The notes beneath the pieces were generated by a model. It was not told the origin of the DNA. It worked only from the letters and a program-made list of their open reading frames with translations, and ran no database searches. Shown piece after piece: positions 32,261 through 33,113 of a stretch of DNA of 56,052 nucleotides (position 1 is its first letter; each line of letters starts with the position of its first letter). The stretch is from IMG/VR virus record IMGVR_UViG_3300032157_000011, positions 1 through 56,052 of that record. One strand, written 5' to 3'. The stretch is from a virus. The translations under genes and the position numbers were made by a program.

Positions 32261-32802
32261 TCCTTGGTGTCCTTGGCCGGGTCGTCCGGCGGTTGGTTGG
32301 TATCCCTCCCGGCGTGGGCCCCTGTTTCCAAGGGAGCGGGCGCATGAGGCGCTCCTTGCAAATCGTCATTTGACGTTTCAGCAAACACTCTGGCGATTGT
32401 TTCGCCATAGTCAAGGCCGAGTTCGGCAGATAGTTGACGAATTGCCCGCGCAGCCGGTCCCGCTGGAATGTTAGGGCGCATGGCCGCCGAGCTGTGGGCG
32501 CGCGCCTCACGCTTGGCCAGGTGGGAGGCCTTGGACGCCTCGGTGGCGTTGGTGCGGGCTTTCTTCGGGTTCGTTTTGCGCTGGGGACTTGACGCAACCG
32601 ACCCGTTTTGCGCTGAGGACTTGACGCAACTGGGCTCGTCCGGGTCCGTTTTGCGCTGGGGACTTGACGCAACGTGCTCGTCCGGGTCCGCTTTGCGCTG
32701 GGGACTTGACGCAAGACCGAACTTCAAGCGGAGCAAGTGGTCCTTGATGCGCGCCGTGAATTCCTCATCTGACTCATTTGGGGTCCGTTTGGGCATCGTC
32801 AT
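32257..32802 (-). CDS. Candidate DNA-binding initiator/regulator whose coding region carries four iterons
   Basis: Start MTMPKR at box variant ACATCAAATGA; central ASSPQRK x4 is encoded by iteron cluster A; C-terminal helix-rich AARAIRQLSAELGLDYGETIARVF. Confidence 0.5.
   Translation of the reverse strand: MTMPKRTPNESDEEFTARIKDHLLRLKFGLASSPQRKADPDEHVASSPQRKTDPDEPSCVKSSAQNGSVASSPQRKTNPKKARTNATEASKASHLAKREARAHSSAAMRPNIPAGPAARAIRQLSAELGLDYGETIARVFAETSNDDLQGAPHAPAPLETGAHAGRDTNQPPDDPAKDTKE
32365..32375 (-). promoter_or_regulatory. Start box ACGTCAAATGA (exact)
   Basis: Embedded out of frame in the 3' end of 32257..32802, about 105 nt upstream of next start 32260. Confidence 0.55.
32576..32714. 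repeat. Iteron cluster A: 4 copies of TTGCGCTGGGGACTTGACGCAA
   Basis: Copies at 32576, 32608, 32651, 32693 (22 bp each, one with 1 mismatch); spacing 32, 43, 42 bp; inside CDS 32257..32802. Confidence 0.85.
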
Positions 32803-32809
32803 TTGATGT
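32799..32809 (-). promoter_or_regulatory. Start box variant ACATCAAATGA
   Basis: ATG 32802 is the start of the iteron-bearing gene. Confidence 0.6.
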
Positions 32810-32842
32810 TTCAAGGTGCGTCGTGCGTGGTGCGCTGTCAAG

Positions 32843-32970
32843 TTGCGCTGGGGACTTGACGCAACAAGACCGTCCGAGCCCACGTTGCGCTGGGGACTTG
32901 ACGCAAAATGGACCCGTTGCGCTGGGGACTTGACGCAAAATGGACCCGTTGCGCTGGGGACTTGACGCAA
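32843..32970. repeat. Iteron cluster B: 4 exact copies of TTGCGCTGGGGACTTGACGCAA
   Basis: Copies at 32843, 32885, 32917, 32949; spacing 42, 32, 32 bp; in the divergent intergenic region. Confidence 0.85.
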
Positions 32971-33091
32971 AACGAAGCCTCCGCCCCGGAATAGAACGAC
33001 CGTGCTATTTTTACATTTGGGGTCGTTGCGCACATTTCCGCCGATCGTAGGCCGGCGAAAAGTTCCGGCTCCGAGGCCAGAGCGGGGCGCG

Positions 33092-33113
33092 TTGCGCTGA
33101 GCGCTTGACGCAA
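33092..33113. repeat. Degenerate ninth iteron TTGCGCTGAGCGCTTGACGCAA
   Basis: 3 mismatches to consensus; 55 nt upstream of ATG 33168. Confidence 0.6.

Follow-up and report, generated by a model that had tools for sequence, protein, structure and literature searches.

A phased 22-bp repeat array within and upstream of a small gene of a temperate phage, a candidate replication origin

The viral genome of IMG/VR record IMGVR_UViG_3300032157_000011 (positions 1 to 56,052; this whole stretch of 56,052 nucleotides is referred to as the window) carries a compact array of 22-bp repeats, or iterons, inside and upstream of a gene for a protein of 181 amino acids (aa). A pattern search allowing up to three mismatches identified nine copies of TTGCGCTGGGGACTTGACGCAA, all on the plus strand and all within 540 bp, starting at 32576, 32608, 32651, 32693, 32843, 32885, 32917, 32949 and 33092. 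Seven of the copies are exact, the copy at 32608 has a single mismatch (GGGG to GAGG), and the copy at 33092 has three; in shuffled sequence, 0.00 matches were expected. The array is real and highly non-random. Across the 56-kb window, neither the iteron nor a near-copy of it was found outside 32576-33113, and the array is the sole clustered multi-copy repeat of the genome (Tandem Repeats Finder scores of 196 and 180, versus at most 71 for two-copy items elsewhere). With nine copies against none expected, and all of them at one locus, a single cis-acting site is favoured over a dispersed set of operators, and a dispersed regulator was set aside.

The copies fall into two clusters and one outlier. 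Cluster A (32576..32714) comprises four copies in the linker-coding part of the gene at 32257-32802, on whose strand the repeat reads TTGCGTCAAGTCCCCAGCGCAA; Tandem Repeats Finder describes it as 2.6 copies of a 42-bp unit with 94% matches. Cluster B (32843..32970) comprises four exact copies in non-coding DNA, 41 to 168 nt 5' of the ATG of the gene (2.8 copies of a 32-bp unit, 100% matches). The distal copy, TTGCGCTGAGCGCTTGACGCAA (33092..33113), lies 143 bp past cluster B and between two AT-rich patches. Its three mismatches are all central, so that the ends TTGCGCTG and CTTGACGCAA are unchanged. These ends form a 5-bp inverted repeat in the iteron, TTGCG-N12-CGCAA, and an orphan half-site, TTGCGC, is found on the plus strand at 33026..33031 in addition to the nine copies.

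Start-to-start spacings along the array are 32, 43, 42, 150, 42, 32, 32 and 143 bp. A preliminary description of this sequence had reported the nine copies, both clusters, the degenerate copy and centre spacings of 32, 43, 42, 42, 32 and 32 bp, all of which were recovered. It had also placed the sites on one face of the helix. Inside each cluster this holds, with a helical resultant of 0.93-1.0 at 10.5-10.7 bp per turn (a resultant of at least 0.95 would arise by chance with a probability of about 0.005 per cluster). The phase of cluster A relative to cluster B varies with the pitch assumed. As 22-bp repeats that share one orientation and are helically phased within clusters, the copies agree with the repeats of about 17-22 bp of iteron-type plasmid Rep/ori systems.

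The gene that hosts cluster A (32257..32802, minus strand) is supported by its open reading frame (ORF) and translation, by codon-position GC bias, by a homologue termed P0002, and by an AlphaFold2 (AF2) model. The 296-aa ORF proposed by the gene caller (P0001, starting with TTG at 33147) is overlong at its 5' end. The ATG at 32802 is favoured by a translation-start cassette, or start box, that carries it (AAACATCAAATGACGAT, 32795..32811, minus strand), by the alignment to the homologue, and by the loss of codon-position GC bias upstream. The iterons had been said to share CGTCAA with this start box; the resemblance of the six nucleotides is there and nothing further. The box is a genome-wide translation-start cassette. 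Its alternative reading as an iteron-related palindromic operator was rejected, because the palindrome is not kept among its 21 copies, whose behaviour is that of such a cassette.

In the 181-aa protein, an N-terminal strand and helix (residues 1-29) are followed by a disordered basic linker (30-82), a helix (83-103) and a strongly conserved C-terminal module (106-141, AMRPNIPAGPAARAIRQLSAELGLDYGETIARVF), whereas the final ~40 aa have no counterpart in the homologue. The AF2 model has a confident N-terminal segment with a helix at 12-28, and a conserved extended segment followed by short helices at 116-128 and 132-141. The predicted local distance difference test score (pLDDT) falls below 50 at residues 30-82, the iteron-coded stretch, in which cluster A (nt 32576-32714) corresponds to codons 30-76. 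The in-gene repeats are therefore placed in the interdomain or linker part of their host gene, like those of lambdoid O/ori systems. All four in-gene copies had been described as encoding ASSPQRK. Three of them do so, in frame 1, but the copy at 32608 is read in frame 2 and encodes CVKSSAQN. Because the in-gene copies are read in two frames, the repeat is maintained at the DNA level and not at the peptide level.

Upstream of the gene, a -35-like hexamer, TTGACA (32837..32842, minus strand), was read off the sequence 34 nt 5' of the ATG, directly abutting the proximal iteron at 32843-32864. A consensus scan found no full sigma-70 promoter, and the hexamer is a putative promoter element. The suggestion that cluster B could serve autoregulation is plausible, because the cluster abuts this hexamer.

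The intergenic region also contains two AT-rich patches of low stability. The first (32989..33018, core TATTTTTACATTT at 33006-33018) adjoins cluster B, and its 30-mer is within the 0.15% least stable of the genome according to nearest-neighbour stability; the second (33154..33183, rank 0.11%) lies between the distal iteron and the divergent gene. An AT-rich patch beside cluster B (33004-33022) had been described before; it is real and of low stability, but small, and it is accompanied by the second patch. The DNA 3' of cluster A is GC-rich, and both unstable patches are outside the gene, past cluster B. As a separate observation, ACATTT occurs twice at about 33013-33040.

The divergent gene (33240..33878, plus strand) encodes a protein of 212 aa that is conserved in three contigs (homologues P0004 and P0005, 52-53% identity). 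Its AF2 model (pLDDT 86) is an all-helical, long coiled-coil bundle, for which Foldseek returned generic coiled coils only, and its C-terminus, RRNITRYLPE.ER.AW..ETDALES, is invariant. Contig L002 ends 40 bp upstream of this gene. A scan of 29.5-36.1 kb against Rfam gave no match.

A single homologue of the iteron protein, P0002 with 44-48% identity, was identified among 5.8 billion clustered proteins. A full HMMER profile run over 1.84 billion representatives retrieved only the window protein and P0002, so the family has two members among these representatives. P0002 is encoded on a 4.9-kb Logan contig, L001. Contigs L004 and L005 are the L001 sequence from other runs, and hence provide no copy-number variation. 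Over about 4.5 kb, L001 is syntenic with 29.4-33.9 kb of the window, sharing the end of the integrase gene, the 30384 gene (65% identity), the 30781 gene, the N-terminal part of the coiled-coil gene, the iteron gene and the divergent gene (50-55%). Other searches did not extend this set. The exact iteron was not found in viral contigs, degenerate peptide patterns of the iteron and divergent genes gave no confirmed relative in viral, genome or metagenome contigs, and tblastn against phages and plasmids gave no relatives. A protein search with the 30384 gene yielded no additional contigs, and 31-35 kb of the window has no DNA similarity to GenBank phages.

The window iteron is absent from L001, where 16-bp palindromes, TGCCGT-N4-ACGGCA, recur with a period of 23 bp. 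Just 5' of the start, 31-81 nt before the ATG, there are two full palindromes and a half-site, and a distal half-site 146 bp further upstream is comparable to the distal iteron of the window. Three more full palindromes and two half-sites are located in the linker-coding part of the gene, where all three frames are used. The half-sites of the two phages are related (TTGCGY in the window versus TTGCCGT in L001; proximal sites TTGCGTCAAGTCCCC versus TTGCCGTCAACCCC). The 23-bp period corresponds to a step of 69 degrees, so the same-face phasing seen inside the window clusters is not kept in the relative. The least stable 30-mer of L001 (809-838) is found in the equivalent intergenic region.

The two proteins have diverged very unevenly. 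In the C-terminal module 31 of 36 residues are identical, the differences including P110V, N111T, A126V and R138T. The N-terminal helix is recognisably similar, and the linker is unrelated. The proportion of synonymous differences in the module (pS 0.69) is saturated, and the ratio of non-synonymous to synonymous change (dN/dS) is 0.08, indicating strong purifying selection. The preliminary description had proposed asking whether relatives conserve the repeats as DNA while the linker varies, and L001 has arrays at the same two places, with another repeat sequence and an unrelated linker. Because synonymous sites are saturated, the repeats differ and the module has a dN/dS of 0.08, the two-place architecture is maintained and not just recently inherited. 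Because the in-gene copies use different frames (two in the window, three in L001) and fall in a segment predicted to be disordered, selection acts on the DNA. As judged from the two sequences, the repeat array is selected at the DNA level, and its two-place architecture is kept across deep divergence while the sites themselves have changed.

Some further features of the gene pair were noted. A second start box lies inside the 3' part of the window gene (32362..32378, minus strand), and in L001 this box contains both the stop of the homologue and the start of the next gene. Compared with L001 the box is one base out of register, and the window ORF extends for ~40 codons (32257-32378, minus strand). 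Its ATG opens a 459-codon frame running into the coiled-coil gene, which could reflect a frameshift, a new tail or overlapping products. The part coding for the C-terminal module (32377-32460, minus strand) has a third-position GC content of 0.39 compared with about 0.75 in the ORFs of the genome, yet its dN/dS versus L001 is low, as given above. In L001, a second motif, GTCTAA, occurs three to four times (794-799, 991-1004, 1009-1015), including a palindrome, GTCTAAGTTTAGAC, and may serve another factor; the window showed no counterpart. L001 also has a tRNA-like fragment at about 3985-4030 that is related to that of the window, but different and in the opposite relative orientation.

The genome in which the array resides is complete. 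The contig ends in an exact 108-bp terminal overlap (1-108 = 55945-56052) and is therefore circularly closed, with a genome of about 55.9 kb; an 833-codon ORF spans the circular junction. Tailed-phage genes are present (TerL, portal, head protease, major capsid protein, sheath and tape measure), as are enzymes of nucleic acid metabolism (a family A DNA polymerase, PolA; an SF2 helicase; a PD-(D/E)XK nuclease; a DnaQ-like exonuclease; a deoxynucleotidase). Deposited phages are distant, with at most 31% identity for TerL and at most 24% for PolA.

A tyrosine integrase is encoded at 28463-29572, and the 54 nt at 30100-30153 (minus strand) match the 3' part of tRNA-Leu(CAG), nt 33-86, without a difference in Minicystis rosea and in eight further Myxococcota genomes, including Labilithrix, Nannocystis and metagenome-assembled genomes of Polyangiaceae. 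This segment is the core of an attP. Together, integrase and tRNA attP mark the phage as temperate on sequence grounds, and the attP core points to soil myxobacteria of the Polyangia type as the host group. No related prophage was found at the tRNA-Leu loci of the nine Myxococcota genomes. Almost all genes of the phage are on the plus strand, and the iterons are part of a leftward block of 6 kb (about 30.1-35.96 kb) that adjoins int and attP, and whose small ORFans have no matches in Pfam, PHROGs or NCBIfam.

How can the array be interpreted? Most likely, the 22-bp repeats act in cis as docking sites for dimers of the protein encoded by their own gene. This protein is favoured as the binder because the related half-sites of the two phages parallel the near-identical C-terminal modules. 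Under any model of the array autoregulation is likely, judging from the contact between the proximal iteron and TTGACA and from the location of the upstream L001 sites relative to the ATG. Beyond this, we tentatively favour, at rather less than even probability, an autoregulated, type-specific site-binding protein that together with its array forms an origin with its initiator, as in lambda O/ori or the iteron Rep systems. By this analogy the array is the best candidate for the replication origin of the phage. We infer the identity of the binder, the autoregulation and the replication function alike.

According to this proposal, dimers of the gene product would dock on the 22-bp sites via the inverted ends TTGCG...CGCAA. 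The four upstream and four in-linker sites would bracket the promoter, the start codon and the first 29 codons of the gene. Their occupancy would shut off the gene's own promoter and, at the same time, build a phased and wrapped nucleoprotein complex about 400 bp long that would act as the replication origin, with duplex opening at the unstable AT-rich patches just past cluster B. The logic would combine that of lambda O/ori, with sites in the interdomain linker of the initiator, and that of iteron-plasmid Rep, with iterons over the rep promoter.

Several observations favour an origin with its own initiator: the placement of sites in a coding linker, their number and perfection, the phasing, the rank of the patches beside cluster B among the least stable 0.11-0.15% of the genome, and the matching position of the least stable 30-mer in L001. 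In addition, no other initiator, primase or replicative helicase is recognisable in the genome.

A number of points weigh against the origin reading. The 181-aa protein matched no family in Pfam, PHROGs, NCBIfam or PDB, where in particular no homology to O, to replisome organisers or to any initiator family was found, and its earlier label as a putative DNA-binding protein thus has no homology backing. When its C-terminal module was aligned by hhalign with a set of ribbon-helix-helix (RHH) sequences, the alignment was in register but weak, and no more than suggestive (P = 0.02, probability 2%). No gene for a helicase loader or helicase (P, DnaC or DnaB type) was found among the downstream genes at 32075-32260 and 30990-32078; these genes are not replication-like, and in L001 they carry lipoprotein-like signal sequences. 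PolA, the SF2 helicase and the nucleases are encoded about 25 kb from the array. No AT-rich tract flanks the in-gene cluster, and neither DnaA boxes (up to two mismatches, assuming a consensus for the host) nor the IHF consensus were found in 32200-33300. The comparison of architectures rests on one relative, L001, and the C-terminal module is nearly identical in two phages whose site spacing differs, so that the binder could be another part of the protein or another protein. Finally, repression loops too classically have sites on both sides of a promoter.

Compared with the lambdoid O/ori systems (lambda and the Stx phages P27 and 933W), the locus shares dyad-symmetric repeats, here candidate initiator-binding sites, in the middle of the gene, in a tolerant linker, a copy number that varies between relatives, type-specific sites combined with a conserved C-terminal protein part, and an AT-rich region nearby (PMC7466680). 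It differs in that the protein has no sequence or family similarity to O and is half the size, that a second cluster lies on the promoter, that the AT patches are outside the gene by the upstream cluster, and that no P-like loader follows, with the phage encoding its own PolA. The lambda O/ori arrangement suggested in the preliminary description therefore stands as far as DNA-level repeats in the code for a disordered linker, their retention in L001 and the unstable patches nearby are concerned; it does not extend to O homology, a loader or an AT tract by the in-gene cluster. In its essentials the preliminary description is right; as an analogy, its comparison with lambda is reasonable but unproven.

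The replicons of iteron plasmids (P1 incC-repA-incA, and the pSC101, F and R6K type of Rep) share with the window co-oriented, phased ~20-bp repeats, with one set over the promoter of the binder gene, a second set nearby and an adjacent AT-rich region (PMC4980987, and general knowledge). In contrast, the window has no winged-helix Rep homology and no DnaA boxes, its second set is inside coding sequence, and the element is an integrating phage. No winged-helix Rep family was matched, the AF2 model has only helices, and Foldseek with this model returned nothing. The protein is a member of neither the lambda O nor the iteron Rep families, and the analogy is one of logic only.

The main rival is that the array controls transcription only. 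Both clusters would then be operators flanking the promoters of the iteron gene and the divergent gene, bridged into a repression loop or wrap, as part of an autoregulatory or heteroimmunity-type lysogeny switch without a role in replication. Repression loops or wraps have precedents in lac O1/O2, in gal OE/OI and in the flanking sites of 186 CI. As in such auxiliary operators (lac O2, gal OI, coliphage 186 CI FL/FR), the window has sites upstream of a promoter and in the downstream code, at a distance compatible with looping. The location in a leftward block adjoining integrase and attP, the divergent gene arrangement, the inverted site ends that suit dimers, the upstream sites close to TTGACA or the ATG, the phasing of the clusters, and site sequences that differ between relatives, as in heteroimmune phages, all fit this explanation. 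However, the window has four sites per side, placed inside the regulator's own gene irrespective of the coding frame, and eight or nine perfect sites are many for one small gene. Repressor operators would be expected at early lytic promoters, but no iteron was found outside the array, including at the five copies of a promoter-like family described below. Because no iteron is present at any other promoter, the protein cannot be the repressor that controls the prophage as a whole. Its divergent partner consists of one coiled-coil gene and is no lytic operon. A known repressor fold was not detected either, as hhalign against a set of helix-turn-helix proteins gave a probability of 0.1%, and no HTH_3, CI or Cro-like repressor family was matched. 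We consider a purely transcriptional role less likely than an origin with its initiator, after which it comes next.

A centromere-like segregation site is improbable. Here, a centromere-binding RHH protein akin to ParG, ParR or omega would coat the arrays around its own promoter. The disordered basic N-terminal half of the iteron protein resembles the tails of ParG and omega, and two arrays bracketing a promoter resemble R1 parC. Like the RHH centromere-binding and repressor proteins in general (ParR-parC of R1 and pSK41, ParG, omega), the iteron protein is small and half disordered, with a possible strand-helix-helix module and with arrays bracketing its own promoter. The C-terminal module has a strand-helix-G-helix pattern into which both short AF2 helices fit, and which aligns weakly in the RHH register. 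In pMF1, the only well-studied myxobacterial plasmid, ParB binds iterons upstream and downstream of par and inside ORFs (PMC3235114). Even so, the RHH assignment is not significant and the fold is not established; a Pfam search of the protein for it gave no match, and Foldseek found none for the AF2 model. The window repeats are 22 bp long and spaced by 32-42 bp and not contiguous, and neither the locus nor any other scanned ORF yielded a gene of the ParA, ParM or TubZ kind. With its integrase and tRNA attP, the phage integrates and has no need of partition.

It is very improbable that the array has no function as DNA, being the product of recent slippage duplications of a repetitive linker, or a source of mRNA hairpins. 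The perfect 32-bp and near-perfect 42-bp tandem units do indicate recent duplication, and the units fold as hairpins (-5.3 kcal/mol in the window, -8.2 to -9.6 in L001). Yet five copies lie in non-coding DNA upstream of the promoter, the in-gene copies differ in frame, the same two places hold an independent repeat family in a relative with saturated synonymous sites, and the two phages differ in the strength of their hairpins.

The least credible alternative is a packaging (pac) site of the SPP1 or P1 kind, with clusters upstream of and in the 5' part of a small-terminase gene flanking the cleavage point: SPP1 pacL/pacC/pacR and P1 pac provide a precedent for such a geometry of two clusters around the promoter and 5' code of a small gene with a flexible middle, but the gene is 16 kb from TerL (16038-17588), on the other strand and in the lysogeny or early block, it has no TerS homology or PHROG match, and the 108-bp circularising overlap is uninformative about DNA ends. 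Arm-type integrase sites of attP were rejected because the core at 30100-30153 is 2.4 kb from the array, and a site for a host factor was rejected as unlikely because the relative uses a different sequence.

Two other sequence families are dispersed through the genome. The start box (a Shine-Dalgarno-like GGA, followed by AAACGTCAA-ATG-A[AC]G) has 21 copies, compared to 0.14 expected, and 20 of them are co-oriented with the local genes; L001 has two more. Examples in addition to the two in the iteron gene are at 1930, 8700, 11318, 17628, 26694, 27100, 34599-34615 (minus strand), 36654, 37710, 42190 and 51340. Some open real genes, and many open mini-ORFs of 3-27 codons just 5' of major genes, such as the major capsid gene at 37749, the gene at 42224 and the helicase gene at 2026. 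The start box at 36663 provides an in-frame internal start in the head protease gene, from which a nested scaffold protein may be made.

The promoter-like family, TTGACyGCGGTCCCCCAC-N4-CTAAGCT, has five copies versus 0.3 expected (29569-29586 on the plus strand; 34565-34582, 34991-35008, 35312-35329 and 35976-35993 on the minus strand). It precedes the small leftward early genes and the gene for a secreted protein after int, and is absent from L001. Because an ATG follows only about 7 nt after the motif, leaderless or near-leaderless mRNAs are suggested.

Within the leftward block, the ORF at 34614-34973 has a weak match to the PHROG "DNA replication initiation" (E = 0.02), which was judged to be due to chance. 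GC skew is positive throughout the block (30000-36000), and is not simply determined by the coding strand, because AT skew changes sign there while GC skew does not. A 40-bp perfect inverted repeat (30833-30872 and 31563-31602, arms 690 bp apart) is read in sense, in different frames, in the convergent genes at 30709-30993 (plus strand) and 30990-32078 (minus strand). A simulated inversion between the arms truncates both gene products, and a shufflon is not obvious.

In its widest form, the favoured reading is that gene and array are a self-contained, type-specific replicon of an unseen lineage of polyangial temperate phages. The two proteins would form a new initiator family of two members, with origin sites in its own linker and promoter, and with specificity re-tuned via half-site and spacing while the C-terminal module is kept. 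This wider claim is possible, but we hold it with more reserve than the pairing of an origin with its initiator. If that pairing is true, it would represent a new initiator family, and the solution of placing an origin in the linker of its initiator would have arisen outside the lambdoid and Gram-positive phage families. For myxobacteria, pMF1 is essentially the only usable plasmid that replicates autonomously, and it works in Myxococcus (PMC11610982, PMC3235114). Members of the Polyangia (Minicystis, Labilithrix, Nannocystis, Polyangiaceae) are difficult to manipulate but a rich source of natural products, and a compact phage replicon of ~1.1 kb, together with the neighbouring tRNA-Leu integrase/attP cassette, would be candidate genetic tools for them. 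The locus is of interest for its orphan protein family, for its myxobacterial host and as a natural pair of diverged specificities. Even as a mere regulatory switch, two relatives with one scaffold and different site sequence and spacing would be a natural experiment on the co-evolution of specificity and geometry.

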